Part shown: piece by piece, positions 33,701-57,700 of the stretch
Layout: every line of letters begins with the position of its first letter
Numbering within the stretch: the first letter of the stretch is position 1
Source of the DNA: Catajapyx aquilonaris
Lineage: Eukaryota
NCBI GenBank assembly: GCA_000934665.2
Contig: KZ538365.1
Location: 1-64,000 of the forward strand
DNA length: 64,000 nt
Direction of reading: 5' to 3'
The notes under the pieces: model-generated
The model's database searches: none
What the model saw: the letters and a program-made list of their open reading frames with translations, nothing else
Told to the model about the DNA's origin: nothing
Position numbers and translations under genes: made by a program

Positions 33701-36700
33701 TTCACTTAGACCAAGAGTTAAAGAGCCTTAAATCTGAATTGGAAAGCATACAAGTCTACAGCAAGGATCAAGATCAGGTCAACACAAAATTAGAGGTACA
33801 AGTAGCATACACTTGAATCTATGTAACAATTTCATCTTACCTGGCCATTGTCTTTTCAGGTACTGAAATCCAAGGTTGATAGTTCAGTGAATCAGGCCAA
33901 GAGTCTGAATTCAGACAGTCGAGAGAGATATCTGGACATCCAACAGCTTGTTCCAGTTGACATTGTTCAGGAGGTAAAGATTTCAATTTATTATTCTGAG
34001 AACAAGGTTTGACTTCTTCTTTTTGCAGTTGTCTTTGCTAGAACTTTTGGCAGAGACAGTCTCCCACGCAATGGATGAGAAAGAACGGGAGTTTAAACGG
34101 GCAAGAACAGTCCGCTATGAGTATGGCAAAGATGTGGAGGATGTGCAGCAGTGGATCCAGCAGGCAGGCACAAAACTCCAGGACCGATCTGTGGAACCTC
34201 ATGCCCTAAAGGAAGTCTTGCAGCACATCCAAAATGAGATTGGGGGTGTAGCAGACAAACTGGATCGGGCAACGAGAAATGGACAGATTTTGTGTGAGAA
34301 GACTGACAATGAGGAGGAAAAAGAACTGATTAAAAACACTATTGCCAATCTGACTGAGAGATTGCAGCAAATCAGGAATTGGCTGGAAGAAAGAAAATTA
34401 CAGGTATACTTTTCTTTACAACTTCATATATGGGCCAGGTACTCACATATGCGAATTATTTCAGATAAGCAGTTCACTCGACTCCTGGCAAAACTTTCTT
34501 CAACTTCTGGCCTCAGTGAAAGCATGGGTTGATGAGAAGAACAAGTTCCTTTCAGAACCACTGCAACTTTGCAATTTAACCCTAGCTCATCAAAGGTGTC
34601 AGGATTATTTGGTAGGTTTGTGACAAAATTTACTAGTGGAACATGTGTGATAAATTTTCTTTCTTAGAATGCTGTCAAGAGTTGCAAGCATGTTAGCAAG
34701 CAGCTCAGTGAAATGGGAAAGGAGCTGGAAAGGATTGCTCAAGTTTCTAGTGTTGGGCCACTTGGTGAAAAGATGACAGAAGCAGAAGAGATGAAATCTG
34801 AGGTTGAATCTAAACTGATGGAAAGGGTAAGTGAGTCTGTAGCTTTATTGCATATTGTGAAGTTATTTAAATTCTCATCACTCCTCAGAATGCATTGCTG
34901 CAAGAAACCACTGAAGAATGGGAGCAGTGTGAAAAGAAGCTCAAAGACATTCGATCTTGGATGGATAAAACTCGACAAAACCTGGATTCACCTCAAAACA
35001 AGAAGAAACCCCTGAGGGATCAACTTGCCCTGAGGGAAAAAGTCTTGGCTGACATTGCTATACAGAAAAACAAAATTACCATCTCTCTTAAGAAACTCCA
35101 GGTAAGATTACTATATTGTTTTTGCTATTCTGGTGATTCACTATCTGACATTTGTATTGCTTCTCTGCAGTTGCATTTCACATCAGGGATAGGTGGTGAT
35201 GCTGAAGTAACCTCAAATGTGCAAGAACTTCTCCAAGATCTTGACAAGATACATGGTGAAGTGAAGGAGCAGTGTAAAGTTTTGGAGGCATGCGTGTCTA
35301 AAGTTGACCAATACCAGCAGGTAATCAGATAATATAATAAATGCGGCCTGTTTGCATTACTAGATGCATTACTGTTGTTAATGCTACACAGGAAATTCAG
35401 GATCTTCGACAAAAAATGGCTGATGAAGAGCAGAATCTCAGGATAGTTTCCAGTCCCACCTACTCACCAAGCGACAGAGACAAAGCAACCACCGAGCAGA
35501 ATGTAAGTGCAAAATTTTGTTTGCCACGGAAAGCACAGATCTGCCGTAGTCAGGTTCAAAATTTTTGAACAGGTTGTAAATATCCAGCTTTTCATGTAAA
35601 TACTTGTACAGTCAAGTGACACTGACCTTTCCATGACGTATGCTGTCGAGAGTAATTTTTGCCATGAAATATATAATGGCAACTGCATTGTGATAGTAAA
35701 TGTTTTGGCTGACAGGATGCGATTGGAAACATTTTGATGAAGATTAGAATCCTAGAGATGCGCAGTGGCAGCGTGGTCATTTCATCAAGGTGTTTCCACC
35801 TCATTTGACCACACCTTGAATGACAAAAATTTATAATGGGTTCCACAAACACAAGGCACAAAAGTTTATGCTTAATTTTCTTCTGTCACATCTTGTTTTC
35901 ACTGCTTTGGTTGCAAATATTGCTTGGAGTTTTCAGGGGTTTTTGGTATGGTTTCTTTATTTAAAGGTTCACACTTCCTATGGGACATAGTTGACCAATA
36001 CCTTGCATGTACCCCAACAGTTGACCCTCTTTTACCCATGATTTTCACTTCATTATTTCCGGACTTAAAAACTTTTCTTTTCTGCTGTCTTTGTTGTCCA
36101 TCAGGCCTGCAGGGAGCGCATAAAAGGCATTCAAACCAGGATCACTGCGCTCAATGAGCGAGTCAAGCTTCTCATGCAGCAAGGGACACCTGAGTTGGAG
36201 CTTTTAGACTCTTAGTTGCCACTTTGTACTGTTTATTTTTATGTTCCTCCCTTTCACCATCACCTGTTTTCACTATGTAGACTCTCTTGGGCTCAATACA
36301 CATGCGGGAACTGTAGCCTCAAAGTGCTTTTTGTTGGATCTGCACGATAGGAACACATGCAACCCCTGAATGAAATGAAACGCAGCCACTGGCATTGAAA
36401 ATGGCAGATTCTGAGGAGTTGGTTAGGTTGGTTGGTCAGTGTCTGAATCTTTCAATGCAGTGGCTGCTTATGCTGCTTTGTTGAAATTTACATTGGCTGT
36501 GATGAAGAAAGAATATGAACACCTATTACATGATGTGAAGCCAGAACAAAATAAAAATGATATAGGCCTATTTTAGAAAGTAACCAGTATTGAAATAAAG
36601 GCTAACATGCAGGTAAAATGTTTCCCTAACAACATCGATTGTACTGTACTGGAGTGTAGGATGGCATTTTGGTGTTCCATGTAGACTTGTGTGTAGCACT

Positions 36701-39700
36701 CAAAACTTGTGAGACATTAAGCATGGGAAATCACTATTTACTAGCTATAAGTTATTATTTCGTATATTGATAAATGCAAAGCTTTCAAAACTGCACCACC
36801 AAAAAACTTTACACGATAGGTTATTGATATCTAAAGTTATGGTTTCCCTTACATCAAGTAAAATATTTATTACGGGATCTTACCAGTATTGATGGGGAAA
36901 AGAGGATGATGTAGTGGATGATTAACATTAATATTCAAAGTTTTATGGAGTAGGCTGACACATGCTGTGATTCGGAAACAGTCATTAACTTAGCGAGAAA
37001 CTGGTACCCTATGTTACAAACATCGCAAGTTTATGTAACATGTCTTATTGGGATATATCTGCTTCTCTCAAATTAGTCACTTTTCAGCTGGCTTGAGTGG
37101 TAGAATATCATGGATGTTGTACCAAAACGCTAGCTGTACCTAATGGAGCTCACACTACACCTCTAGAATCTACATCAAAGGCAGATATATTGATGTATAA
37201 ATTTACAGAGATTTGCCAGGTGTGTCACATTGTTAAGACTGCCCCATAAAAATCATCTTTCAGTCAAGGTCAAAAGGATAATTTGAAATGAAGATACTTT
37301 GGTAGTACAATTGGACGCCTTGTTTAAAATGCCACCACATGTGTGTCACAATTGTATTCAAAACAGTTTCCAAGCTTCCTGAGTCCTGACATACTGAACC
37401 AATTGAAATATGCAAAACAGTTACCTGTGAACTGAGAAAATGCTTATAAAAGAGATGTACTGTACAATTGGCAAAACTGTCAGGAATTCTCTTATGATAC
37501 TTTGTTCGTTTTCTCCGTAATATGCAGGTGTAGTGTTTGCTTGATGTGTCAAAAACATGCCGGTAATTATCACAGAGTAATTTTAGAATTGAGAGGTGAT
37601 TGAAATTTTTTAAGGGTGACCATATTAAGGTAGTATAAGGCTGCACTACCAATGTAGGGCTTCTAGAGGTAGCGTGAATCATTTTCTTCTTCCATATAAA
37701 AATGAAGATTGGGTTTTCACAACTATTTTGCAACTATTTTATAGCCCTGCTATTTTATATCAAAGTGCAAAACAGTGAAAAATTATTATTGTCTCAAAGA
37801 TTCTACACCATAATAATTATGGACATTCTCAAAAGAGTTGTCTAGAAACTAAAGTTTTTCCTGTAATGATAGGAAGAACTTCAGGAAAAACACTGACCTG
37901 ATATTGTATTATTACAATGTAATTGACAAATTTAACTATTTTCATTAGTGGGTAATTAAGTAAAGTCCTGTCAGCCCCCGTAAACTGCATTTAAGCCTTT
38001 ATTCAAGTGGTTAAAAAGTGGCAGTATTAAAATTTATGACAGTATTGTAGCATCTACAGCCTGTAATGATATTGTACCACATATATCATTATTCTGTACA
38101 GTATATTCTTAAGCTATTGCATTTATGCATTCAGATCTTATTTTGTTCTGGTTACCTCCGCCGCCTGCAACTGAGATGTTTCTCTCTTATTCGGGTTGGT
38201 CTCACAGGCTCTGCGGGACAAGATTGAATTACTTCAGCATGATATTCAGGTGGCAATGATCAAGGTCCGAGAGATCGATCCAAATGAAGTAATAAGTTCG
38301 GAAATCAGTGTGCTGAAGACAATCAGAGCCTACGTGAGCACCAAAGATGGCGGCGGTGCGCGTACTTCCAATAAGACATCCCACGTACACGTAGGGTCTT
38401 CCGAAACAGAGCTTCTTAGCAGCAGGCCCTCATACGCTGCAGTGGCTGCAGGAAGGGTCAGTCCGACACCCTTTCAGCAGTCGGAAGACGAAAGTAGCAA
38501 AACAAATGTTGAACTGGGAAGGGTACCGAAGCAAGCATCATCCGTTGAGGTTGAAGAGCAGACTTGCACATCATCACAACCCATCATCTTGGTAGAGGAA
38601 GCTTCAGAAGAAATGATTGAGACAGTCAAACAAACTAAGCAGCCTCAGAGATGGTCGAGAAGAAGTGATGATGGTACCAGGCGAAAAAGCAAGGGTCCTC
38701 AACAATCACGTGCGGCAGCTGCGTCACCAACAACACCATCATCTCCCAGAAGCCGTCCATCATCAAGAAAAACGGGAGAATTGACCCAACGTTCCAGACC
38801 TGAGATTGTCTCAACTAGGCAGACTTTGGAGGCTCCCAGTGCTACTCGCCGACGAGCACAGAGCCCGGATGCCCCAAGAGGGCAACATGCTCGGTCTCCC
38901 AGCCCAATGTGGATACCTGGAGCAGGACCATCATATGCTGAAATTGTGCGAGGGCTGGCAGAAAAAGGTGAAGAAGTCAAGGATGGAAATAAGCAGTTTG
39001 TGGAATTGGGAGTCAAGTTGGAAGAGACATTCATGCAAAGTGAGCCAATGAGAGCAGCTGAATATGAGGTTACGACTCCTCAACCAGAGCCAATTGGGAA
39101 TTGGGAAGATGCAGCCTCTTCAATCCAACCAGGATCTGCAAGCATGGAAAATGTATCAACCGAAATACTATCGCCAGTCGCTTTTGCATCATGTGTGGGT
39201 CAAAGCAATGAATCTGCTGAATCCCCGCCAACCTATGAAGAGCCATTTATTCCTGCATATGACGAAGAATACTGCCAGCAAATAATTTACCCTGACTTGA
39301 CTCAGATATCTCAAACTCCTCCATACACTTTGATACAGGTGATGGAGCCTGGCAGTCAGCTAATGTATTCCCCAACGGGATCTTTTTCATCACCTGTTCA
39401 GCAATCTTTTATGGAAGAAATAACTGCAAATGTAGCATTAGAAAGAGATGTATTAGAACCATACACCATGGAACAGAGTTGTGCTCCTGTGCATGACTTG
39501 CAAAAAGAAGAAGCATCAATGCAACAAGAAGGCCCTGCAGCAAGTCCACATGTGCCACAACCACAATATCCAGGGTTGTCGCCAGAGCCACAATATCAAG
39601 AACAACCGCAGTACTATGAGCCCGAGCAGTTTCAGGCAGTGCAACCACCACAGCAAGAAGTTGCAGCTGCTGAACCACAGGCAAGGTTGTCTTACGCACA

Positions 39701-42700
39701 AATCTTGGCTGCAGGAAGATTAGGGCCAGTCCAGCCATCCAGTCCCAACGAACCAATTGTCGAACGACCGAAATCTTCACCCTTACATACTGAGCCTGCA
39801 CGCGTAGAAGACCTGCCAGCGGTACCTCAAGAGTCTAGGGAATTGAAGAAAAAGAAGCCTGTAAAACCTTTCGAGGCAATGTCCTGGCATGAAAAGCCTA
39901 AACATTCGTCAGGGTTCCAAGCTGCTGCAGCGACCAGGAAGACAAAGCCAGAGCAAAATGTGGAAAAGCATAAAAAGCGTAGACAAATATGGTCAACTAC
40001 GACCCTATCCTGGGATGAACATGAAGAAGAAGTCGGTGTGGTGCAAACGGAACCTGTGCCAAAAATTCCCGAACCCATTGAAGTACTGGCTGTGCCGGAT
40101 GAGAAAGCGATCGAATCGGATGAAAAAGAGGAAGAACCGCAGCAGCCTCTCGACGAAGAAAAGAAGAAGAGGAAGAAGAAAAAGAAGGCGGAAAAATCTG
40201 AGGACGAGATTGAAAAGGCCCTAAGAGAAATTGCAGCAATGGAAAAGGGGCATGACACCAAGGAAAAGAAGCAAGGAAAGTCTTCCGAGCAAGATGTATC
40301 GAAAAAAGAAATGCCAGGAAAGCATTCTAGCCGAATTTCCAAAGATAAGCCTTCTGTGGAAAGCAAGACCAAAAAATATACTGGGACAGCTGTGAAAGTC
40401 GAAGCATCACATCAGGACATTGCTCAAGAAGAATTGCCATCAAAATATGCAAAGAATCAGAAGTCGAAATCTTCTTCTACGCAGGCTGCTGTTTCTGCGG
40501 AAGAAATATCAACCGCGGATTCTAATTTAGACTATCAGGGTCAGGTTGCTGAAACAGAGCCTGAAACAAAGAAGAGAAAAATTAAGAAGAAGAAATCGCC
40601 AATTTCAGCGGAATCAGTTGCACAGGTTATTGAAACTGCCACTGCGTCCCAAGAGGGTGAGTCACCTAGTTTTGAATGCGAAAACCAAGACAAGCCTATC
40701 CAAGAACTAGCAACTACGGAAGTGGGCACAGGCGAAACATTTAGAGAGGCAAAGCATTCTGAAAAGACTTCCTCGGAAAAATCCAAGCCCAAAAAGAAGA
40801 AAGATTCTGCTCCAGCTGCAGTTGAAGGAACTCAGCTGGAGACAGAATCTCTACCTGTAACAATTGCTCTTTCCCTTGAGGTAGCTGAACCTCAAGACAT
40901 ACGACCGTTAGAGGAACAAACATATGTTTCAGATATCATAACTACAGACGATGCCATAACATCACAAGAAGTACAACTAACAGGAGAAAATACAGAAGAA
41001 GTGAAACCATCCCCTGAAGTGGACACCAAAAAGAGAAAAGCAAAAAAGAAACGAGTGACCACTGATCTTCCAAATGGCTCGCAAGTCTCAGAAGACTCTA
41101 AATTGCAAGGTCAAGAAGACATTGCTACTGTCGAAAAATTAGAAGAAATTGAATACGTTGCAGAGAGAGCTGAAGAAACAACTGCTGACACGAATCCCTC
41201 GCCAGATGATGATGTAGCTCGCAAGAAAAAGAAATCTAAGAAGAAGAAAGGTTCAGAAATTTCAGATTCGATTGTAGTTTCGGCTTGCCAGACTGATTCT
41301 GAAACGGACAAGGTTCTAAAAGGAACCACATCACCAGAAGACTTCAGCACTGGTCTCCCGGATATTGAAACAATGGCTGAAGGACAACCGGACCAACCCC
41401 AGTCAGAGGATATTCCAGAAATAGAAAAAGAAGAACAAGGGGTGAAGGAGGAAGATGTAAGAACTGTTGACTTACATATGGTTGAGGAGAAACTTGAAAC
41501 ACAGCCAGCGAAAAAGAAGAAAAAGAAGAGCAGAAAAGACGCTCGTTTGCACGAGACTATGTCATCTAAAGTTGAAGAATGTGAAGCTTTTGATCAAGAT
41601 AAATCTGAAACCCATTTTGAAGAGCAGCATTCAGCAGAGCTTGGTGTCGAAACCGAAGTTACGTATGAATTAGCACAATCGCCAACACTACCTACTAGTG
41701 ACGAATATGCGTGTGAGGCCACAATTGAACCTTCAATGGAACATGGTGAAGGAGAAACTGCAGCTGTTGTGGAACCTATGGTACACGAAACAGAAGAACC
41801 AGAGGGTATACTTTCAAAGGGAACCAAAGCGAAAAAGAAACACAAGAAGCTCACTTTTAAAGATGAACCTCAAGTGGCAATTCTGCCAGAAGAGGCTCCA
41901 TACTCAACTCCATATCCGGAGAAAGTGGAAATGCCCGTGTTTGTTGACCCTGGGTCTTGGATTCTCACCGATGAAGAGGAGGAAAGAAAGAGAAGGGAGA
42001 CTAAACGTGGCAAGCCGATAAAGAAAGTTAGTTTCTCCGAGGTAGTGCAAGAAATTTTGCGAGAGGATGTTCCTTTGGAAGAAATCGAACCTCTTGTATC
42101 GGAAACCGCCATGGAAGTTATGGATGAAAAGGAATTCCTCTTGGATGAGTGCAGAGTTAGTGCCTTGCCGGATATTCTCATGAATTTGAAAAGTACTTCC
42201 CTAGATCAAGGCCAGGATACGTCTGTAGAAGCAGAGACTGAAGTTATTTCTGGAAGCCCTGTAGAAGCAATATTCTCAAAAGATGACTCTGAGGTGGTGG
42301 AAAAACCATTTCAAATGGCTACCACAAGTGCTGATGAAGAAGCAACAGTGGACAGCAATTTGGACCAAGAAGATAGGTTCGAGGAATCAGATATTGGTGT
42401 AGTCATGAAAAAGGATGCTGACAAAAAGGCTTCACCACTTGGACGCAGAAATGTGAAAAAGAAACTCAAACGACCCAAGTTTGTCTTGGCAGAAGAAGAG
42501 AGTGTAAGTTCAGTTCCCCCAGAACCGGAGGAAATGGTGACATCTCCAGTCCCTACCGGAAGCGTCGAGGAAACGGAAGTGCTGCAGGAACAATCGGAAC
42601 CTCAGCATTTAGAAATTACTGTTCCAGTTGAATCTCACCTATTACCATGGAGTGGCAGCGATGAAGATGTCCTATTAAGTCCTCAATGGATGAAACGTAG

Positions 42701-45700
42701 CAGTCCGGGTCCAGACGAAAAGTCGGCTGTGGAAGTGCCGCCTAGTCCATCAATCACACCAGACATTCCATCGACAACTGACGACGAGGCCACATCATCG
42801 GGCAAGTCCTCCCCATTAGTGCCTCACTTTGCCTCTGCAGATGCTTCGCAATCTCAGGAAGCAGAGGAAGTGTATTGGAGGATCCGAGATAAGGTGAAAA
42901 AGAAGAAGAGACGTGTCAGACTGCCATCGGTTCCAGAAGCACAATCTAAAGTAGAGGAAGTCCAGGGAGTGGTCCAAGAGGCAGTCCAAGCTTCAGAGCA
43001 AACGACATGTACAGAACCTGAATTGATACCTGAGGAAGCACCTATGGAAGTGACAATCGAAGAAGACCAAGTTCCAAAAGTAGCGGATGCAACTCCTGTA
43101 ATTCCTAACTTTCCTAGGCAAGAGCTGAGTGGGGCTTGGTTAGAGGCTTTGGAGCAGCCGTTGACGTTTGACGACGAAGAGGATGAAGCAGCTTCGCCGA
43201 TTGTCACAACTATGGATGAATTTCCTCCTATTACTGGCGTGCCAGAAGCCCCACAAATACATGTCAAGATAACAAAAGAAATTACTAAAGTGATGTCGGC
43301 TGTGGAAGAAGGGGGCTATATTCCGGAAGAAGAGTCCAAAGTAAAAGTGACTTTTGAAGTTGAAACTGTCCCAGTTTCCGAGAAAATGACGACACCTATG
43401 CCTGCAACATGGGCTGACGTGGTATCTTCGAGCAAATCGCCGGACCAAGAAGAGGAAGTACTAGAATCCCCAGTCATAGATTCTAGCGTGCAAATTGTAA
43501 AACCAAAGACTATTGTCATATCTGCTGAGAAAGAGAAAGGAGACAAGAATGAAGAAATGCAACCAGACCCAGAAGGGTTCCTACCGGTAGCTAGTAAAAA
43601 CGAACGACGGCGGAGACATACCCGATCAACCTCTAGAGAACCTACACCCTCGAAAGACACTTCCGAAGTTCATGCTGTAGCGCCCCCAGAATCTCCAGAA
43701 TTAGCACAATCCGAAGATGATGAGGAAGATGATGAAGATCAATCGTCAGCTTTAGAAACACCAGAAATAAAACCTGGGAAAGCAAACAAAGGCTGGAGGA
43801 AGCGTAAAGCAAAGTTGTCTGACGTTGAAAGGGAAGCCTTGGAAATAGCTGATGCTATAGAAAGTGGAGGAGATGTACCTGCCAAAGTTTTGGAAGCACG
43901 GCGAAAATGGGACTCGACCCTCCTGGCTCTAGAATACCTTTCCCAGGATGTCTGGCATGATTATCACAGCGTGAAAGCCGCGGAGAAAAAATTGCACGAA
44001 AATCGAGCAAACCTTGCTGTTGCTGTTACCAGCAGTAATGTGACCGAAATAAGTGCTGGAGAAGCCCAGGCGAAGGTAGAGGAACCTCCAGTGGTGTCAA
44101 TTAAACAACCACCATCAGTAACGACAGAAATGGCAGAACCGTCCCTAGTAACAGAATTATTACCTTTTATGCCAGAGGGGAAAACAGTACCTCTGTCGTC
44201 TACAGTGACTTTGGAACCCAAAGAGCCTGAGGATCTATGCGCTATTGTCGGCGTACCCATTGAACCCCCGCCTGCTAATGAGCCTTCTGCAACAGCTGCA
44301 ACAGAAGTGACGATCGCGACAGAACCTTTAGCAATAGATGACTCTTCGGAAGACAAGGATGTCCAGGTTTCTTTGCTGCCAGTAGTTCCTACTGTAGAAG
44401 CGGGGCCTTTACAAGAAGATTCACTCGCCATCGCAGAAGATAATACATCCGGTCTAGTTCCTACTTCGCCACCCATTGATATCGATGCTGGCAGAGATTC
44501 TGCATCTGAGGAAGCAGAGGTTACACCTGTGATCGATCAATCTGTTTCCAACGAAATACCTATATTCAGGGACGCCAGTGTCAGATTCACAGATTCACAG
44601 ATACAGGAAATGTCGGATGAATCTGTCACGGAAATAGTATTACCCAACAACGATCAAGTGTGGGTGGAATCTCCATTGTACAGCGAGGCAGAAGTACAAC
44701 GACCAAGAGTGCTTCCTCAAGCGCCTAAGCGTGAAGTAAGCGTTAGTCGTTGCTTGGCACGCGACATATTTTGGTACGACAAGTGGGTTTACGACGACGC
44801 AGAGACCTTGTGGTACGAATTAGCTTCTCAAAGAGCACGAGTGTCGGAAAAGGCGAGGTCTAGGTCAAAGTCTCCTCCTCCACCGCCTCCTCCTGATGAC
44901 GACCACGATTCCAGTAACGACGGTGACGGCAATGGCGGCGGCGGTAGTAGGTCTTCCACTTCTGAGGCTTGGTCCGGTTGTGGTTACCAAACACGGTCGG
45001 AGTACTTTACAGCTGATCTTCCTGCCGGAATAGGTCACTGGCGTGACCTCAGCACATACCTTAGCAAAGATGTGGGCCAGGTCGGTGAGGTGGTTGTGAT
45101 GGAGGACACTGAAAGCGCGACTTTTAGAATTGCAAAGGAGATGGCCGAACAGGTGATTGGTACTCTGGACGATGAAGATGCAGACAGCTTTAAAGAGCAG
45201 CCAGCGGTTTCGTTCCGCGAAAACAAGGTTGGCACCAACACCTGATGCTGGATGATTTGCGTAATGTGCCGACTAAATCTGTGTTTAGAAGCACCCTCGA
45301 AACATTTCGTATAACCTGTGTAACTAATAATTGCAATCCTTTGATTCTTTTCATCGCTGCTACTATACTACTGCTATGGTACTATTACTTTGGGCTTTCT
45401 TGCTTGATATCTTCCTGCTGGCTGAAGCAATCATGTTTGCCAGCAGGAGGGGCGACCTTTATATATGCAGTTGCAATCATGATATCACATGTCTGCATCT
45501 CGCACGCGCGTAAAATGACAGATTGTGTGATTGTGTGACATAGCATGTTGTGGAATGCCATTTTGTGTTTCTTATGTAGGTTACTCCTATGTGGTGTAAT
45601 TGTATGAGCGCGGGTGTGTGTGTGTGTGAACGGGTTGTTATTAATAACACCTAGAGGAGACCTTGCTTTTGGCATGCCCGCTCAGTTTATTTCCATCTTT

Positions 45701-48700
45701 GCAGTCATTTACCTGCATAGGTATTGTATTGTATCATAATCTTGTTTGTCAACTAAAGAGTTAGTCTGAATGAAATGAGAACATTTGAATGCTGTGGCCG
45801 TATAACGTGAGCCCAGAAAGCACAATACAGTGCAGTGGGGCGATTTTATTTTAGATTACCGAAGGTGACAATAGGTCAAAGAGTCGAAATTTCATAAATT
45901 CAGCCACATGGGATTGCAGTATTACTGCCTGCACGTTTTCACCCAACTTGGCAACTTTGCGGCCTGTCTTCTCTCACGTATAGTCGGGAAGGTCGCGACC
46001 TGTTGATAGATTAGGCCCACCTAGATGATAAATAATAATGTAATTTATTGCTGCGGTCACTTATTCCAGTCTTTCTCCGCCATCAAGCATAAGCTCGACA
46101 GACATGCAGTTAAGAATCAAGTCATAAAACCGGATTTGTTCAGTAGTGTATAAAGAAGCAATCAATTGACAACACGTTGTGAAATGAAACCGTGCCAAGG
46201 ATGGGTCACGTAAAGTGACAGTGATGTTTAAGAAGGACATGATGATCAAATAATGTCACGAGGCTGCCCTTGAAGCATCCTAATTTGTTTTTCTAGCCCC
46301 ATGCAGTTATTTTTTTATTATTCATCAGCAAGCATGATGGCTTCTTAGAAAAATGCAGTCCTGCGTGACGGACTATATGGAACAGGTAGAAAGCAAAAGT
46401 TGGCCTGTTGGGGTGGTCATGCAGGCAGGAAAGACTGCGGGACATGATGTTATTTGTGGGGGTGAGTCACACATTTTGGGCGCCGGCGTTCCACTTGGCA
46501 GGCAGCTACATTAGAGCTGGTGGCGGGTGGGAAGGCTGCAGCGCTTCTGCTGCACAGCCTACAAAACCATCACTGTGATATTCGAGAAGTTCCGTAAGTT
46601 TGAACCGAGGCTATTGCCGCCGCTTGCTAGCTGCAGCTTCTATTCTTGGTTGTCAATGGAAACCGGAAGGTGCTGTGGGAGTGGGGAGGACATGTGTAGT
46701 CTGTGTGTGTGTGTGTGTATGTGTGCGCGCGCATGGTGTGTTTCAGAATGTGTGGAAAGTAGAACTCATCTTCTCCTTTTTGCGTGGGGTGTGTAGGAAT
46801 CTGCTGGATCAGAGTTGAGGAACCTTCAGGATAGTCTGCAAGACATAATACAACGACTGGCCTTGGTCGAGCAAGAGGATATTTATTCCCAGTTGGCCAC
46901 TCTTCGAGTAAGTGTCGTTTTGAATATTATATTCGGTCATTTGTCACTGTGATGGGTGAAGTGTCTAATACTTAATATATTATTATTATTGAATGTAAGT
47001 TATAAATATATTGGCATATCCAGATCATCTTACAGCTTTAGCCGTAGGCAACCTCTTTTATTGCTCGCAATATATGCAAATATTTGTCGAAGAACATGTT
47101 CCATTACTAGTGGAATGGGAGAAAAAAAGAGCCACGCTGGTCCATCTCACGTCAACACTTGTTTTTTTAAATGCAACTTATGAATTAGTTGAATGCAAAC
47201 CGCTGTGGAAGAGTAGATATTCAGAAGCGGATGATAGTCATTGTCATACAAAAGGCTGGTAATAAAAGGATGTTATTAGTGAAAACCGATTAGACCTTTC
47301 GCCGGGTGCACACCAGCAGTGTCTCAAGAACGAATAGAGTCGTACTTGTATTAATCGCCCTTGACTTGACCTTTTGGGTAGACAGATGTGCAGGTGCAGG
47401 CGCTTCGATCTGTCAAAAGCATTCATCAGCAATGTTTAAATCATTATGAGCTTACTGTAATCTGCTGCTCTGTCATGATGTTTATTTCAGAATACTGTAT
47501 ATATACAGCCAAGAGTTATTAGCTCTTGATACAGCATAGGCTGGGTACTTTTCTAAATTATGGACATTGAAAAAGTACCGCATTACGTGAAACTGCACTG
47601 ATTTGCGGAAGCCAAGTTATTTTCGCCAGTACTGGTACACATTTTTTTGTGATCAGGCAAGTTCTATCGACAACTTCCATAGGCCAACTTTTTCCAGAAA
47701 CACATTGCGTTTTTGGGAGGCTCTTCGTGTCTGTGGTGCGATGATGAGATTGAGTCAAATCCAGGGCAATTTCTTTTACTATGCATTTAGCCTCACGAGT
47801 CGCAAACATAAGATCACCCAAACTCACATCTGAATCTCGGAATAAAAGCTTTTGAAATATGGACTGTTTTCCGGTGAACTGACCTGCTCACGCCATCTTT
47901 ATCATTGCCACAAAAAGGACATACTGTATTATATGTTCTTACAAGCCTAAAATAAATATCAATATCGCCTCCCGTAATTTACAACACCGGTAATGACTAG
48001 TGCTCTGGTCTGATAAGTGAACAAGTGTACAACTTTCAGTGCTGAATACGGCGAAAAGCCAATGCAAATTCCTGAGAGGCCGATAGTAGTTGGCATACCG
48101 AAAATTGCATTCGTAATGCGATACACTGACATCACGCATTTCTTTCAGATTATTGTTGACAATCTCGCGACCTTTGACAAGACAGCCAGCACCCTCGATG
48201 CCAAATTGCAAGACGTGGGCTTTGATCCCGACTTTCAAGCCCTGCAAGTTCAGTTGGCAGCTGTGAAAACCAAGATAGTAACTGTCACCACACAAGCGGA
48301 AGCTTTACAGAGGGGAATAGAAGTAAGTTTGCAAGACCGCCGGTGAGATCACCGTTTTACATGTGTGGGCGTCACCCAATATTTGTCTACTCACTTGGCA
48401 CAATAGCAGTGTACTTGTGCTATATTGGACATAATTTAATCCGGCTGACATGTGTCCTTAGGCGTACCTCAAGGAAAGAGAAAAGAGACATCAGGAGGTC
48501 CGCAACTACGAAGGATTGCTGAATGAAATTGGCCAGTGGCTAGGTGACACGTGTGCGGCTCTCTCTTTGCAGCAGGGTCAACCCGGATCTTCCCAGGCCA
48601 TCCAGGAGGGCATACAAAGCACTCAGGTAATATTTTTATCCGCTTGGCAATCAGTCAGACGGGTTTTGTCAACGGAAGGGCTGGTCACGCTCACACGATA

Positions 48701-51700
48701 CTAGTACAAACGGGGAAACAGTTTTATGAGCATTTTGAACGTGTAGGTCAAGGTCGCGCCAATAGCAGAATCGGCCATGTTTTTTTTAGCCCCTGAGGCG
48801 TGAGGTGACCGGCATCACTGCTATAAATATATGATGGCAGCTCAGACCCAGAATATTTTTTTGCCGGTGATGTGATTCTGGCATGTGTTACAACAGACTT
48901 GCGCAATGACCTGGAAACGTTTTTGGTCTGTGTGGGGAACTGGTACAGTGCAGATAATGAGCAAACTTTGGTCAGCAGCAGATTTAAGGTGGTGCTGTTG
49001 TTCCATTTCCACAGAGCGTCTTGAATGAACTAGGCACCAGGGAGCAACAGTTGCAGAATTTGCTACTGCAGTGCCAACAGTTGCAAGGACATCGAGATGT
49101 GCAGGTTCTTGCCACCCGTCTGTACGAACAGCTCGTCGGTCTGCAAAGGACTATTCTCGAAACGAAGGGAATTCTGCATGCGCGACTACAGGACTTGCAG
49201 GTAAGATTTGACCTTCAACTGTTGGACACCATGAGTGAACGTTTTCTGGGCGCATGATATTGCATCAAGAATGATATGTTAAAAACTGTGTGTGTTCATC
49301 ACAATCATCCGCCTGGGTTTGTTCATTTTTGAGCCACCTTGGCGGACTGTGAGGAGTGTATAGGCCCGAAGTGGATATCACATCTTATAACCAATCCGTA
49401 TGCGGAATGTTACTACACAAGTTTAGTCGTGTATACGGGGTGTTAAACGAAAATCGTACACCGATGGCAGAATTCTATGGGGAAGATTTGCGAACAATCG
49501 CATTTACGTCACACTTTTGCGATATCCGCGAGGACAGCATAGTAATATTTCTAACTTGTTGATATGTGCAGTGAGTGACGGATTTACATAATGATCCTGA
49601 GAACTGACGTGCCTATTTTTTATGTTCGTGGAGGGAAGGGGAACCTGATACCCCCACCTTCCTCCTCTCATTGGATAAACAGTGGAGTGCAGTCTCCCTG
49701 CTGGGGACAGTTCTAAATCATCTCTGCAAATTAAACCTTGTCTTGCTTCCAAACGTTGTCCTGCTTAAAATAATTTGTCTTCTGATAGGCCTTTTAATTA
49801 CGAAACGAGCGTTACAGGAACAGCAATAATTAACACAGGGTGCTACATGAGATCACATAGTTGCCTCATTTGCTTTGTATATCGGAAACGACAAAGATAG
49901 TTTCGGGAGTTATTGTGAATATTATGGTCACCCCTTATTGCATGTGTCACTCGTTCTGTTATACCCAAATAATAAGGCCTGCCCAGATGGCCAAGGAAAC
50001 TCGTGCACGAGTTGTCCCAGGCGGTGGAGTACTATGGAGTGGGGAAGGATCAGGATCAGTCATTTGCAGATCTGGATTATTGAGGAAAGCCCAGAATTTT
50101 AAACTCATCTCGCGCTGCCAGGTGCGTGCGTGGTGCACGAGGCTCCTAGGAATGCAGTAAATATATTTTCAACTTTCTTCGGATCCTCGTACAATAATTC
50201 ACACCACGTGACTTCCGAGAGACAATCCGGAGGATATAATCCTGCCAGACTGGATCTGAGCGCTGTGCCCGCCGCAACTCTTTCCCCACTCCTTATATGG
50301 TCCACTCGTATCCATAGAAAAAAGCGGATGAACATATTTATTGTCACTTTTTTCGCCATTCTGTATGGATGATACCAAGTGTGTATGTAGCATATGAAAT
50401 ATCTGGAGATTATTCGTAATGTTTTGTGAAGCAATCAAAATGCAGGGTGTCCACAATGAACGTCCTTAGTTTCAAAGAGCAGTAAAAAATAGACATGAGG
50501 AGGCATTTAAAGTTTTGCATAAACTTGATGAGTGTCCCTTCTCATTTGTACAATTTCGACACCATGGTCCAGTTACTTGCGTAATTATAGCAAGTTGAAA
50601 CTAGGGAGGTTCATTGTGGACACCCTGTATATATTTTGAAATAAAAAATGCCGCAAGTTTTGAAATTATGTCAATATTCACATCGGGAATATTTCGACTA
50701 TACCGTACATCACTAGAGGTAATAATCGTTTCAGCCAGAAAATACTTGAAGCAAAATGTGTGCAAGGTGCATTTTGGAAACGATCCAGCAACCCAATTGT
50801 CGCTCATTATTGCATAGTCTACTAATTTGTATAGTAGTAGTTCTATATACAGCGTGTTCCATTTGAAATTTCCGCTTTAGCTAGTGCCTTTGGCACTAAC
50901 AAGGGAAGTGTCTGTAGGGCCATCGGCCAATCGGCCCGAAAATGACACTAGGGGTAAATCGCAGGCCAGAAATTCATTGGTGAAAGTAAAAAGTCGCATT
51001 AGCCAAGCGTTTTCGAGATATGGGCGACTATAGGTGCCCGGCAAACACGAATAAGTTATTATTTACTGAGCTTGTGACTATTAATTTTTCCGAATATGAA
51101 GCCATGGAGAGAGTAGGTAAGCATCGGCAGAAGAAAAAAAAAGTAATACACTTCCCAGCAAGCTGTTTATTTATTCCTGTTGATTGCAAAAGGGAAGATA
51201 TGCGGTGATAAACGGTGTTGGGGAAGAAAGAAAAAGAAAACGATGCTCCGAGACGAGAGAGGGAGGGGGGGAAAAAAAGTCGCTTCCCGCGGACTTGAAT
51301 GCGGAGACTTCAGATCATGACGCGGACGCGCTACCGACTGAGCCACGAAGACGGTTTATAATTTCTTCTGCCGAATGCGCCCCATTGTCACCGAGCAGGT
51401 TTGCCGGGCACCTATAGTCGCCCATATCTCGAAAACGCTTGGCTAATGCGACTTTTTACTTTCACCAATGAATTTCTGGCCTGCGATTTACCCCAAGTGT
51501 CATTTTCGGGCCGATTGGCCGATGGCCCTACAGACACTTCCCTTGTAAGTGGCATATTGTTTTAAAGCAGTTACTAGGGCAGGTTTCACCGAGAACGGTA
51601 CCGGTATATGAGAAACCAGGGTTCTTTTCGGAAAATCCCTACATATATCCCTTCCGGTAAATGAGCTCGTAAATGGGCGAGTACATTCCATTTTAGAGCT

Positions 51701-54700
51701 TGGACAAATGATTCAAGCCACCTAATATTAGGAGCTAATGCCGCTGATAACCACTGAAAGTAACTAGTCCAAAGTCCAAAGTGCTTACAGATAAGCGGCT
51801 TAGAGCTTCAAAAACTCTAACTAAAGTAACGTTTATTTCAATTGTAACACCCTGTACACACACTTCCTAAATACGGTACTGTAAAGATGTTTTTAAAAAA
51901 CTCCAGAGCGAAATATTATTACCTCACTGATGATCGCAGGTTATGTAAGTTACTGTATATGCATACATTAACGTCAAAAAGTTTGCAACATGTACAGTTG
52001 TACAGTACCTTATCTTTATTTGCTTATCAAATCAAATACTGGGCGGTCAGTAACTCCAGCATAAAGGGCACTTTCGTGGCCTATTCCACAGCATTATGCT
52101 CTACCTGACTTTTTCCTTAGTTGGGAGCTACTGGTATCGTTATAGCTCGTCATTCGGCGACAATACGTTCCCTTGTGAAAAATAGGGAGTACCCTGCCCA
52201 TTAGATGACCCGGCTGCCGGCGATGGAAGCCGGGTCATTTGAGCGGCAGGAGCATCCAAAAGTCTGTATACTGTGTTATACATGGAACCTGTGTAGTAAG
52301 TGCAAATATGGTTTTTGTTTACAGAATTCTCTAGTGTCGCAACAGCAAAGGCATCCTTTACTGGAAGGAGCAACTTTTGCTGCAGCACAGCAGCCAACAG
52401 CTGAGCCCTTGGAAGTGTTGGCTGTGCAAATTCCCCAAGAATCTGAAGAGACGTGGGAGGACGTGACAGTTCCAGAATTACCCAAACGGATTAAAAAGCC
52501 TCCAACTCAGGGCAGGAGCACAGTAGTTAAGAAGGTGAATAAGCGGGTTCGGGTGATTCGTAAAGTTGTATTTGTGGATGGAAAGGAGCACGTCACTGAA
52601 GAAGTAGTGGAAGAACCAGAGGAGGAAGAGGCGGGTGCTGCGAATGACTGCCAAGTTTTGGAATTTTCAGTACCGATAACGAGTAGTCATATGTCGTCAG
52701 GAATGGACCCAGTGGAGGAGGCCAAGCTTCAGGCACAGCGCCAACATCCCGATGGGGTAGTGGAAGTAGTGGAGGATCCTGACGGTACTAAAAGGATAAT
52801 TGTTCGGAAAGTGCGAACTGTACTCACGCGACAGCAGCAGCAGACTGCAGTTTTACACCGCACGACGACACAGTATGGCGATGGGGAACCACAGACTAGC
52901 ACCAGTACGTCCTTTTCTCAGGTCAATGTTCAGGGTCAGCAGGTTACCAGCTCGGTAACAAAAGATGGCAAGACCGAGACAGTTACCTCTCAGTCTTTCC
53001 AAAAACATTACGTTGCTGGTTGTCCGGAGGAGAACAAAATGGTGGAATACACTGCCCCACCGGAGGAATCTGTGACTTTCCATTCCTCCGAGTCACCAGC
53101 TGCTATTTCAGCATCTGATATGCAGATTGTTCCATCGGCAGAGAGTGGAGTGATGGACGTTGCCGAAGGATACACTGCCGCCACAGTACGCACTGTGGTA
53201 CAGCAAGTGTCTCGAAAGATTATCAGACGGCGCAGGAGAATCATTCGTAAAATTGTAGTAATAGATGGGAAAGAGCACGTGACGGAAGAGGTTGTTGAAG
53301 AACCAGAAGAAGTCGAGATTAGCGAATCGGGAGCGCCAAGTTTCAGCATCGAAGTCAATCGGGAGCTTGGGTCCGAAGACATCGTGCAAGGCGTGCTGAC
53401 TTTGCCTGACTCTGCAGCAACTTTGAGCATTATGGAGAGAAGTTTTCACGAAGACGATTCATCAGTGGCGGAAGATGCTGGAGAAGATTCGCAATCCATT
53501 CCCGTCTTGGTCTCGCACCCAGCGGACGAAGTAGATCGTGCAGTAACTCCGGAAATTATTTCCTCAAAAGTAACTGATGTTCTTGAAAAAATGTTTCATG
53601 CCGAAGCCACAGAAGCCCAACCACTCGAATCGGCTGACGCAAAGAACTATGAGGCCATTTCGAAGGTTGACATTGTCAAGGCAGTTGTAACTAGTGCCAA
53701 TGATTCCAAAGATCAGGAATGCATGGCATCCAAAGAAGTTTCTGCGGATGCTGACTTGGAGAAAATGCCTTCGATCAAGGCAAGAAAAAAGAAGCCACGA
53801 AAGAAGGGCATTGTAACGCACGATCCCGAGGATGAGGCTGTGGAAGACATTGCAACATCTTTGGAGGAAACGTCAGAATCAGCAGAAGTACCAGTAAGTC
53901 CTCATCAAACCCCCGATGTGGCAAAAATGAAGAAGAAAAAGAAGCCCAAGAAGCCCCTCGACATGAGTCAACAAGCTCCTCTGCCAGAAATACAAGTGCA
54001 AGCACCAACTCCTTTGAGTGCAGAAGCCTTTAAATTGCCGCAAGAGTGTGAAGAAACGGCAAAAATAGTAGAAATAGAAACTGGAGAAATTCTCGAAGCA
54101 CCTACTGTTCCAGACAGGAAAAAGAAGAAAGAGAGCCTGGATGACATTGTGGAAGAAGAACAAGCTTCTTCTGATGCAGCATTGCCAACAACTAATGACG
54201 TGATCGCGGAAGCTTTGAAACCGTCACTTCCCACCAGAAAGAAGAAGAAACGCGGGAAGAAAAAAGGACCTCGTACTGAGATGGAATCTTCCCAGATCGA
54301 GCCTGGAGATGATGAGGAGGAAGATGGCGACGAAGCTGAAGAAGATGCTCAAGAAACAGTGCCTAAAATACCGGAGCGAAAGAAGAAAGTGCCTTCTGAC
54401 ACCCAGGAGCTACAGAAAGTTGATCAAAATATTGAAGCAGAACCATCGGTACCAGAAAGGAAAAAGAAGAGAAAGAATAAGGGAAAGAAAGATGTCATCC
54501 AGCCAGTTGTACCAGCCAAATCAGGGCCAATGTCAGTACCAGAGGACTATGAATCTGAAACCACTACCGAATCTATCTACGTATCTACTGAGCCATCCTT
54601 CACTTCCTACGTGTCCAGCACAGATATTGCTTCCCTCGAATCTATGGTTGCAGATGATCTGGAAACACCTGCTAACGCCAAAGAGAGTTTGCCTGAGCAA

Positions 54701-57700
54701 CTTGCACAAGTATGTGTCACTTCTGCTGCCATATTAACTGACATAGAAGAACAGGCTCCAGGACCGCCGCCATGGCCACCTGACAAAGGCCCGTTACAAA
54801 CGGAATCACTTGTGACACAAACTTCTACAAATGTTATTACTGGACTTATTCCTGACGACCCCCGCGATTTGAAGGAAGGACCCCCTAAACCCAAAGAAGT
54901 GTTTGGAACGGCGACAGTCGAATCAGAGCTGCAACAAGCTCCAATGTTGGCAACCCACCGAGAAGACATAGTTGGTCAGGTCAGCACAATCGATATACAA
55001 GCAGGAAGTATTTCAGAACTTCCTCCAGGAGAAAAGGCCACACCTGTGGACCATAATACAGAACTGTTGCCTCGCACAACTGCTCAAGAAGTGTGTCTCG
55101 ACAATGTGATACTGACAGCTGACGAAACCAAAACTGTGTCTTTTGAACCTGATTTGGAAATTGAAATACCTGTGTTGCCTGACGCGGTGGTAACTCTGGA
55201 ACCAATTACTGCAGAAGGGCTTGAAACTGATCAAATTAGTGTTAGTGCAGTGGAAACCAAGATTGGACTGATTCCACCCGCCACAGAACACGAGGAAACT
55301 ACACATTGGGGGAAAGAAGACCCTCTTGACATTTCTTCAGGCCAGCAGGAGACGCTGCCACTACCAGTTACAGAACAGGAGATTGAAACCGGTTCAGTGA
55401 CAATTACGACTGTAGAGACTAAGATTGGTCTGCTTCCACCTGCCGGAGAGCACGATGAAACCATGGATTGGGGCGTGGAGGAACCTCTTGCTGTTTCTTT
55501 AGGAGAGCCAGAGATGCTGCCGCTGCCACTGACAGAACAAGAGATTGAAACAGGGTCAGTGACTGTCACTACCGTAGACACGAAAATTGGGCTAATTCCA
55601 CCTGCCGAGGAGCACGAGGAAGCCACAAATTGGGGCATCGAAGAACCACTTGAGATATCTCGTGAGCAACAGGAAATGTTATCCCCACCTCTGGTAGAAG
55701 AAGGGCCTGAAACTGACTCAGTGAAAGTCACGACGGTTGAGACAAAGATCGGGCTATATCCACCTGCAGGAGAGCAAGAAGAAACCACGAATTGGGGTAT
55801 GGAGGAACGTTTTGATGTTTCTCTAGCACAGCAGGAAAATCTGCCACCACTAGTGACAGAGGAAGGGTTTCAAGCGGGTTCAGTGACAGTCACAACTGTT
55901 GAGACAAAAATTGGGCTTATTCCCCCAGCCGGGGAAAATGAAGAGAATATTCCTTGGGGAACAGAGGAATCTTGGACTGCCTCTTTGGAACAAAGGGAAA
56001 TTCTTCAGCCACCAGAGACCGAAGAAGAGCTCTATCCAGCGTCGGTGACAGTCACTACTGTGGAGACGAAGATCGGACTAATTCCACCTTCTGAAGAGCA
56101 AGAGGAAATCACGCATTGGGACACGCATGAACCACTACAACCGTTCTCTGTCCAGCAGGAAGTTTTGGCGCCACCAATTACTGAGAAAGGCTTTGAAGTT
56201 GGCTTGGTAACATCAACTAGTGTGGATACAAAGATTGGCGAAATTCCACCAGCCAAGGAGAGCGAGGGAACTGCACGTTGGCACACGGAGGAACCTTTGC
56301 CAGTGTGTTCTGTTCAACAAGAAGTGTGGCCGACACCAGTGACGGAAGAAGGTGTTGAGTCTGGTCAAGTGACAGTCCTGACTGTGGATACAAAAGTCGG
56401 ACTAATTCCTGAAGCGGCTGCTCAACCCGAAGAATCACTGGAGCGTGTATGTAAGGAACCTGAAACAGAGGGAAAGCCGGATACGTTGCAGCCTGAGTTA
56501 CCGACTAAATCGCAACCATCGCAAATAGAAATCGAACCAATCAGTGTGCCTTTGGGGCAACAGCAGCGTGAAGAGATCTGGGAAACGGAAGAACCTCCGA
56601 GCACTCTCACTATGAAAGAGGAAACCATAGTTGAACATATCGAACCGTCGTCTCCACTATCTGAGACATTCAGGGTCTCTACGAGTGTGACTGTAGCCCC
56701 TGACGTGCAAACCGTAATCACTGCAAGAGCAGTTCCTTTTGAACCAACTCCTGGTGAACTTGCATTGCAGCCAGAACAGCCGGTTCCTGTCAAGGAACAA
56801 GCCAAGCCAACGATGGAAATAGCAAAAGTCACCTCTGGTGAAGAAGTCATATTTCCCTCGAAAGAAGCCAAACTCAGAACAAGAGAACAGCAAAACGGAT
56901 CTGCCGGCTTTGCCAGTCAAGGTTCTACTCCTCACGACCGCGTGGAAATAACTGAAATTAGCAGTATGGGACACCTACCAGAGGGGGATGAGGAAGACGA
57001 GGACAATGCGGGACGACCATTTTTCCCGTCAGACGTGCCTATAACAGTAGTGTGCAAACCTCTAGAGGTAGAAGAAATCATTCCTCCGTTGGTGGAACAA
57101 AAATTAGCGGCTGGATCAGCAGCAGTCCCCGTGGTTGAATTTCAAGAAATTGAGAGTGAAGACTACGGGCAAACTGAAGAAGCAGTGCCTCAAGTTCAGA
57201 TTGTTGAAGTTGTGGAAGGTGGCGACGTTCTCGAAGACCAACAGATGCAGCAGGCGAAAGTGCAGAGAACGAGAAGCATCATTTTGCATTACTTACGTCA
57301 ACACCCGGTAACGATACAGGTCTTCCACATTGTTCCTATGCCATCGTCTGCGGACCCAATGGACACCGACATGGAAGAGAAGCAAGACAGACTGGAAGAG
57401 TGTGTGTCTAGGTTGAAAAGTGCTATCGGCAACGGCGAAGAGTTAGTAGTAGAAGAAAACATTGCCACCATGGTTAAGACCATCACTACCTGGCTAGAGA
57501 CGATCGAATACCGTATCTACGTAGTAAAGAAAATGGCCAATGTAGACGAACAACGGAAACAATTTGAAATGCTGCAGCAAGAGATTGTGGTTATTGAGGA
57601 TACTTTAGTGGTGGTCGAAGAAGTGACTGAACGATCCCTGGGGTTGCAGGAAGGGACTACGTTGTTTATCAAGCAGTGCATGAAAGACTTGCGTCTGCAA

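Follow-up and report, generated by a model that had tools for sequence, protein, structure and literature searches.

A three-way splice fork in the spectrin rod of an Msp300/nesprin-1-like gene from Catajapyx aquilonaris

The closest described relatives of the gene studied here are Drosophila Msp300 and the vertebrate nesprins. According to the accessible text of PMC8616381, fly Msp300 has 11 isoforms, four starts and four poly(A) signals. Isoform B contains the CH domains and lacks KASH (CH+KASH-), isoform F is short, and isoforms E, M and G share exon 28, which is absent from all others; the isoforms with exon 28 start at an internal promoter and are without CH domains. The same text proposes that the CH+KASH- isoform is located at Z-discs, stabilising them or holding them in register, and notes that this isoform could not be depleted on its own. 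In the available parts of PMC11230431, isoforms E and G are linked to a perinuclear microtubule centre, and the 108- and 101-residue repeats of isoform PE are reported to be Drosophila-specific. KASH-less variants of vertebrate nesprin-1 and nesprin-2 arise via alternative 3′ ends (PMC3388047, in the portion available). The accessible part of PMC4466138 describes how beta-spectrin ends in helices A and B, which are completed by helix C of the partner, and how B-C loops take large insertions. Here we analysed 64,000 nucleotides of the Catajapyx aquilonaris genome (assembly GCA_000934665.2, contig KZ538365.1, positions 1 to 64,000, forward strand; hereafter the window), in which the splice donor at 35502 is joined to three acceptors, at 36105 (exit A), 38208 (exit B) and 46797 (exit C). 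Taken as a whole, the locus is very probably best explained as a conserved isoform fork of arthropod Msp300/nesprin-1.

The donor 35502|GTAAGT is in phase 0, with GTAAGT beginning at 35503, and each of its three joints in the spliced contigs of one public run (X1) follows the GT..AG rule. Run X1 represents spliced RNA, because its contigs skip all seven upstream and all four downstream introns at GT..AG. The splice fork is three-way. The sequence-only reading, an earlier interpretation of this DNA, had one donor choosing between a KASH-less stop and a longer form; the junction to 36105 that it predicted is present in the run X1 contigs, and a stop and longer routes are both joined to the donor, but the choice is not two-way: 46797 had been overlooked. 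Because of the joint to 46797, giant exon 1, which begins at exit B, can be bypassed by a route into the downstream rod. Among 238 AG sites, scored with a matrix built from 11 read-confirmed introns, 36105 ranks 1, 38208 ranks 5 and 46797 ranks 34. The mean contig depths (252 at the A joint, 47 at C, 7.5 at B and 41 over the shared upstream part) are not used for ranking isoforms.

On the + strand, the window has a long intron-rich gene in which spectrin-repeat exons are accompanied by two giant open frames. The frame at 34871-35329, used as a query, retrieved 23 proteins, the named ones being nesprin-1/Msp300-like and coming from insects and one crab. The window exons share 39-55% identity with nesprin-1/Msp300-named proteins at near-full coverage, and a cluster look-up groups the window protein with D. 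melanogaster Msp300 isoform F. By these sequence comparisons, the gene is an arthropod Msp300/nesprin-1 ortholog. In the orthologs the spectrin rod was recognised by Pfam as PF00435, above the cut-off in P0005, and as PF25034, below the cut-off; the exit exons of the window taken singly gave no spectrin match in Pfam, and exits B and C alone gave nothing. The window starts already inside the rod. The five shared upstream exons encode three complete spectrin repeats, and a Met at 34071 is the counterpart of residue 1 of Drosophila isoform F. No KASH-like end was found by pattern search on the + strand of the window, where the last exon seen (61474-61773) is still rod; the KASH domain would be located at the C-terminus, beyond the window.

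Exit A encodes the peptide ACRERIK...ELLDS followed by TAG at 36213-36215, that is, the rest of helix B, a conserved R/Q-G-T-P loop and a short tail. It is identical to the end of Drosophila isoform F at 19 of 36 positions and to a decapod protein at 22 of 36, while the constitutive exon before it gives 19/37 with fly and 27/37 with decapod. Because exit A, from insects to water-flea-like sequences, is conserved about as well as a constitutive exon, the KASH-less end appears to be under selection as a protein. By homology, exit A corresponds to the KASH-less end of Drosophila Msp300-PF. The possibility that it is a chance intronic open reading frame (ORF) or an assembly artefact, to which the short side of its joint (less than 31 letters) might lend some weight, is effectively refuted and has next to no probability left, given that these identities are comparable to those of the preceding exon, that its acceptor is the first of 238 and that four genomic loci have the stop at the corresponding position.

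The 3′ end of this exit is presumably closer than the 36.5-36.7 kb suggested by the sequence-only reading. AATACA is located at 36295-36300, CA at 36320 and a G/T-rich stretch beyond, and the end of the deep exit-A contig was computed by bin arithmetic as ~36308-36320, although contigs cannot show RNA ends. Hence polyadenylation probably takes place close to 36310-36320, as a hint, with AATAAA at 36550 and 36594 as possible distal signals. The exit-A contig (region 33619-36320) is ~6 times deeper (252) than the shared-upstream contig (41); this excess may reflect 3′ pile-up where polyadenylation occurs or a short transcript with an internal start, between which contigs do not discriminate. In the intron between exits A and B, the low-depth contigs (5-7) at 36544-37684 may represent pre-mRNA or a longer untranslated region (UTR) past the proximal signal.

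A search with the junction profile gave 92 rows, many of them near-identical and not independent. Exit A follows in 48, exit B in 7 and exit C in 2, two are chelicerate run-ons, and the remaining 33 are off-target or continue into intron sequence. D. melanogaster isoform F (P0165 = NP_001162885.1) and a 7983-residue nesprin-1 of Scaptodrosophila both terminate in exit A, which was also found in stick insect, wasp, beetle, thrips, copepod (Caligus), decapod and water-flea-like proteins. After the same junction, exit B occurs in the D. melanogaster cDNA HL01686p and in termite and shrimp proteins, and exit C in a cricket protein (P0168) and in protein P0015. Eight related genomic loci have the same phase-0 donor; L004 and L016 preserve the order of donor, A with its stop and B with its long ORF, L002 and L017 have A with the stop, and the spliced contig L001 terminates in A. 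The fork is not specific to flies: exits A and B, as identified by homology, recur after the same junction in insects and crustaceans. The coordinates are collected in Table 1.

Table 1. Positions in the window of the exons, the fork exits and the putative 3′ UTR
Feature	Position	Strand	Basis
Five shared upstream exons	34029-34403, 34465-34611, 34668-34826, 34889-35101, 35171-35320	+	GT..AG introns spliced in run X1; tblastn to orthologs
Last shared exon (w45), 37 codons	35392-35502	+	Helix limits from the wasp-ortholog model
Earlier weak candidate exon, rejected as intron	35716-35808	+	No joint, no homolog, background score
Exit A, terminal coding exon, 36 codons + TAG	36105-36215	+	Joint 35502>36105; best acceptor of 238; orthologs
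Putative short 3′ UTR of exit A	36216-36320	+	Sequence; bin arithmetic on contigs (hint only)
Exit B, giant exon 1	38208-45245	+	Joint 35502>38208; ORF; homology to exit-B proteins (Drosophila, termite, water-flea-like)
Exit C, 37-codon phase-0 exon resuming the spectrin rod	46797-46907	+	Joint 35502>46797; same join in cricket P0168 and P0015
Three further rod exons, exit-C path	48149-48322, 48462-48626, 49015-49200	+	Same contig as 46797 and 52325
Giant exon 2, 2481 codons, exit-C path	52325-59767	+	Joint 49200>52325; ORF

One more start, at 35716, had been put forward as a weaker exit sharing the helix pattern of exit A. It turned out to be intron sequence: no joint from 35502 was present in the run X1 contigs, tblastn gave 0 matches in 17 related loci, its acceptor ranks 24 of 238, and against the exit-A profile its peptide is only twelfth among 126 intronic AG-started peptides.

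Which part of a spectrin repeat do the exits supply? The AlphaFold model of a wasp ortholog of the exit-A form (407 residues, 12-row alignment) has a pLDDT of 91.5, with helices at 295-354 and 360-397 and an unstructured tail. The junction falls at 371|372. Exit A thereby supplies the last 26 of the 38 residues of helix B, i.e. its distal two thirds, in a fourth unit for which no helix C is modelled; the end of helix A, the A-B loop and the first third of helix B come from the exon 35392-35502. Model residues 12-325 superpose on a three-repeat structure (plectin 7-9) with a Z-score of 17.0 and a root-mean-square deviation (rmsd) of 6.0 over 307 aligned residues, and superpositions on three-repeat spectrin/plectin structures end near residue 325. 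With the exit-A model Foldseek returned no match at E<=0.001, the top rows being actinin/spectrin. The rod is thus predicted to end in an A+B repeat without helix C, the intron lying inside helix B. The claim that the alternative exon completes a spectrin repeat does not hold in this model, which contains helices A and B only. Five surface residues of the hairpin are invariant in alignment A1 (K383, R390, R397, P400 and D401), and the unfinished repeat at the KASH-less end, if modelled correctly, suggests a binding surface. A homodimer prediction for ortholog residues 215-407 scored 0.00, with controls not folded, and is no evidence either way.

For exit B, the register asserted by the sequence-only reading was recovered: against the exit-A profile the 38208 start fits best at offset 0, where it outscores 99.9% of 7178 rod windows, and five of six other B starts are also best at offset 0 (top 0.5-2.3%). 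Hence the idea that the exits supply the same helix stands for 36105 and 38208, both of which finish helix B, and falls for 46797. The profiles of exit C scored <=1.3% against the exit-A, exit-B and outgroup profiles (hhalign) versus 30.9% against helix A, and exit C fits the exit-A profile only with a shift of register; on profile scoring and hhalign, a common helix for all exits was rejected. In Lingula, the segment homologous to exit C comes after a helix-C-like stretch. Exit C is most likely the start of a new repeat. Downstream on its path, giant exon 2 consists of a low-complexity part and then spectrin-like repeats, with a putative donor GTATGT after 59767. By eye, ~8-9 tandem units of ~47 residues (V.V.TVETKIGLIPP...W..EE.L) are seen in it at 55200-56400. 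In the intron before giant exon 2, ~50910-51090 recurs reverse-complemented at ~51395-51550, also by eye; the surrounding region (50900-51650) is covered by many contigs with mismatches and loose ends and is probably a dispersed mobile element.

Giant exon 1 opens with ALRDKIELLQHDIQVAMIK, as the sequence-only reading had it, except that its first base is 38208 and not 38209. The frame stays open for 2345 codons, up to the TGA at 45243, and encodes a helix of ~24 residues that keeps the exit-A register, followed by 'IDP' and ~2300 low-complexity residues; its start, middle and end motifs are shared with the exit-B proteins of Drosophila, termite and shrimp. Its end is either the TGA or a putative donor in phase 0, 45227|GTTGGC. 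We consider it probable that exit B rejoins the rod at 46797, as in protein P0146 the conserved end motif of exit B runs on into the exit-C exon. If instead giant exon 1 were terminal, exit B would give a second KASH-less isoform without rejoining, like Drosophila E, which ends without KASH in the accessible text of PMC11230431. The donor GTTGGC is indeed weak, and no joint leaving giant exon 1 was found in the run X1 contigs, in which its last 400 bases are largely uncovered. This alternative is nonetheless doubtful in view of P0146, of the fly exon 28-exon 30 junction assayed by RT-qPCR (PMC8616381, accessible text), and of the three phase-0 donors near the exon end (45080, 45152 and 45227); moreover, contig cover stops at a low-complexity tract, which makes the gap uninformative. 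A KASH-bearing form at least 5000 residues longer, as the sequence-only reading had it, can only be inferred, because KASH would be outside the window and no onward splice was seen.

Exit B would be the counterpart of exon 28 of the E/G/M class, which leads to another possibility, whose chances we regard as evenly balanced, namely that exit B is used mainly in CH-less transcripts from an internal promoter, so that the fork is tied to promoter choice and the CH-bearing rod is not lengthened. In Drosophila, according to the accessible text of PMC8616381, the isoforms with exon 28 begin at exon 21, and a trap upstream of that exon leaves them untagged; both HL01686p and the termite protein P0169 start at the Met matching 34071 and continue into exit B. 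However, gene models beginning with this Met may have been truncated in prediction, and no alternative first exon joining between 33001 and 35502 was seen in run X1, whose contigs can drop rare forms; one contig is continuous from the upstream exons. Such promoter use is a refinement of the isoform fork, not a replacement for it. By analogy with the fly, giant exon 1 may be no simple extension of the full-length protein, because the fly isoforms with the matching exon start internally and lack CH (PMC8616381, same text).

Several features of giant exon 1 deserve mention in their own right. Within the otherwise unalignable 38208-45242, the motifs SYA..AAGR.SP (twice), RSPSPMW.PG..SYA, LS..E.EAL..A.AIE.G, FW.DKW...DAE..W.E and LP.G.G.W.D.STYL are kept from insects to crustaceans, and SYA-type motifs are present in spider and horseshoe crab tails too; they are candidate binding or phosphorylation motifs. 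At a contig break (38927-38987) the mean depth rises from 7.5 to 29, which could mean that an acceptor or start lies inside the exon, or could result only from averaging in a long contig. A different frame of 114 codons, at 45194-45538, overlaps the end of giant exon 1 and contains a hydrophobic 19-mer (mean 2.08), and the termite giant exon read past its donor gives a hydrophobic stretch plus ~34 residues, recalling the fly isoform E membrane tail. A reading of the 45194-45538 frame as such a tail is unsupported: no stop-avoiding in-frame acceptor was found for it, and 2 of 26 intronic ORFs are equally hydrophobic.

The similarity of exits A and B raises the question of whether they are related by descent. 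We think it rather likely that they go back to a single ancestral exon that was duplicated in tandem, the upstream copy being truncated by a stop, in keeping with the suggestion of the sequence-only reading that the two starts are old duplicates. In two named spiders an A-like helix and the loop motif, with no stop, lead into a low-complexity tail with B-type motifs. The spider ORF P0316 runs unbroken through intron-like sequence, an A-like helix, R.PD.DP and a tail with SYA motifs; because it reads straight from intron-like sequence, helix and tail should lie in one exon. Horseshoe crab, Lingula and Patella also have the helix and then a disordered tail. In hhalign the outgroup profile scores 95.6% with A and 89.9% with B, in register in both cases. 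A different origin, by convergence, would follow if packing on helix A obliged every exon that enters midway through helix B to carry on an amphipathic helix. Compared directly, exits A and B reach 48.6%, below the 58.7% of the control (helix A of the same repeat versus B); the orthologous B starts of the window and Drosophila share just 7 of 25 residues, and relative to rod windows the B starts come no higher than the top 0.1-2%, with one failing. Convergence is nevertheless the less favoured and rather unlikely origin: single outgroup exons match both A and B in register, far above controls, the spider exon unites the loop motif of A with the tail motifs of B, and exit C on the same donor lacks the pattern (<=1.3%), so that the donor alone does not force it. 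In Lingula P0205, residues 731-1140 form a disordered insert between helix B and a helix-C-like segment, and the repeat may be whole apart from this insertion; at the end of the giant exon of the window, a clear helix C was not seen.

We propose the following mechanism. The N-terminal spectrin rod would end in an A+B-only repeat, with a phase-0 intron inside helix B, and three acceptors would compete for its donor, the choice being coupled to the use of the proximal poly(A) site. By exit A, helix B would be finished and followed by the stop and by polyadenylation ~100 nucleotides on, giving a KASH-less protein with an open two-helix hairpin; Drosophila isoform F belongs to this class, and D. 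melanogaster isoform B would end in exit A too, judging from the ortholog and the accessible text of PMC8616381. By exit B, the same helix would be finished by a diverged copy, followed by ~2300 disordered residues and then probably by a return at 46797. Exit C skips both A and B and resumes the rod, which would lead toward a C-terminal KASH beyond the window.

A number of points weigh against this explanation. The junction data are limited to contigs of a single run whose library type is unrecorded, and the short sides of the joints (28, 28 and 24 letters) are below the 31-letter bridging advice. Given contigs built from 31-mers, which we take to be the word size, the 28 letters and the 2 letters common to the exons of exits A and B would make up a 30-letter graph-branch overlap. 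Besides the lack of a joint out of giant exon 1, that exon has no contig cover over 44853-45006; the same is true of 36336-36543 and most of 45007-46796, and these gaps are uninformative. The fold model is of the exit-A form of the wasp ortholog and not of the window protein. One of the six other B starts fails against the exit-A profile. For exit C, alignments A2-A4 were dropped with the exit-C exons misplaced, and the model from alignment A5 (5 rows, 2 spanning the junction) has a pLDDT of 70 and a pTM of 0.43, is BAR-like over residues 38-223 and only in its last repeat spectrin-like. No Drosophila exit-C protein was seen among the proteins examined. As for the duplication, the direct A-B score stays below its control, tick and mite fit the helix-plus-tail pattern poorly, sampling of outgroups is thin (3 spider proteins, 1 horseshoe crab and 2 lophotrochozoans), and chelicerates may have a second, terminal exon.

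A more far-reaching combination, which we hold to be improbable, joins these elements: the rod break would be ancient, the duplicated exon would have had its first copy cut short, and the free hairpin would dock a partner helix in trans. Accordingly, Lingula would retain an insert in the B-C loop, chelicerates one exon of helix and insert, and the duplication would date to the insect-crustacean ancestor; the free A+B hairpin of the KASH-less form would be completed in trans by the helix of a partner, by analogy with spectrin tetramers. If this were true, the hairpin would be a C-terminal anchor, and the CH+KASH- isoform would link Z-discs in place of desmin. In the incomplete literature searched (few subscription papers, no figures or supplements), we found no description of the predicted unfinished repeat, the putative exon duplication or the conservation of the fork.

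The arrangement of the fork is already annotated in Drosophila, and as a splice switch it is of little surprise because it is orthologous to annotated isoforms. The exit-A exon and its putative short UTR are private to B/F-type ends, so that the proposed role of the CH+KASH- isoform at Z-discs becomes directly testable. Like Drosophila isoform F (NP_001162885.1), the exit-A form has the same last exon after the same junction and is KASH-less; unlike it, the window gene belongs to a different arthropod. Exit B resembles Drosophila HL01686p (Q8MSD6) in the junction, in the helix followed by DP, in the SYA-type and RSPSPMW motifs and in the giant low-complexity exon. Compared with Drosophila E/G/M, the window exon has 2340 codons and no in-frame hydrophobic segment (best 19-residue mean 0.85). 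As in the KASH-less variants of vertebrate nesprin-1/2, alternative termination would remove the nuclear anchor (PMC3388047, available portion), and in contrast to them no vertebrate counterpart of the fork turned up, none having been tested for. The predicted A+B end without C is like the C-terminal partial repeat of beta-spectrin, its tetramerization site (PMC4466138, accessible part), a comparison that, like that of the B-C loops, is an analogy only; it differs in that no partner helix C is known for Msp300.

Duplicated mutually exclusive exons are known in arthropod Mhc and Dscam. The fork has the same phase and one donor in common with them, and its tandem starts may likewise be homologous. 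It differs from them in that its putative copies are of 36 and 2340 codons (65-fold), that A is terminal, and that exits B and C can probably share one transcript, as P0146, with B and then C, suggests.

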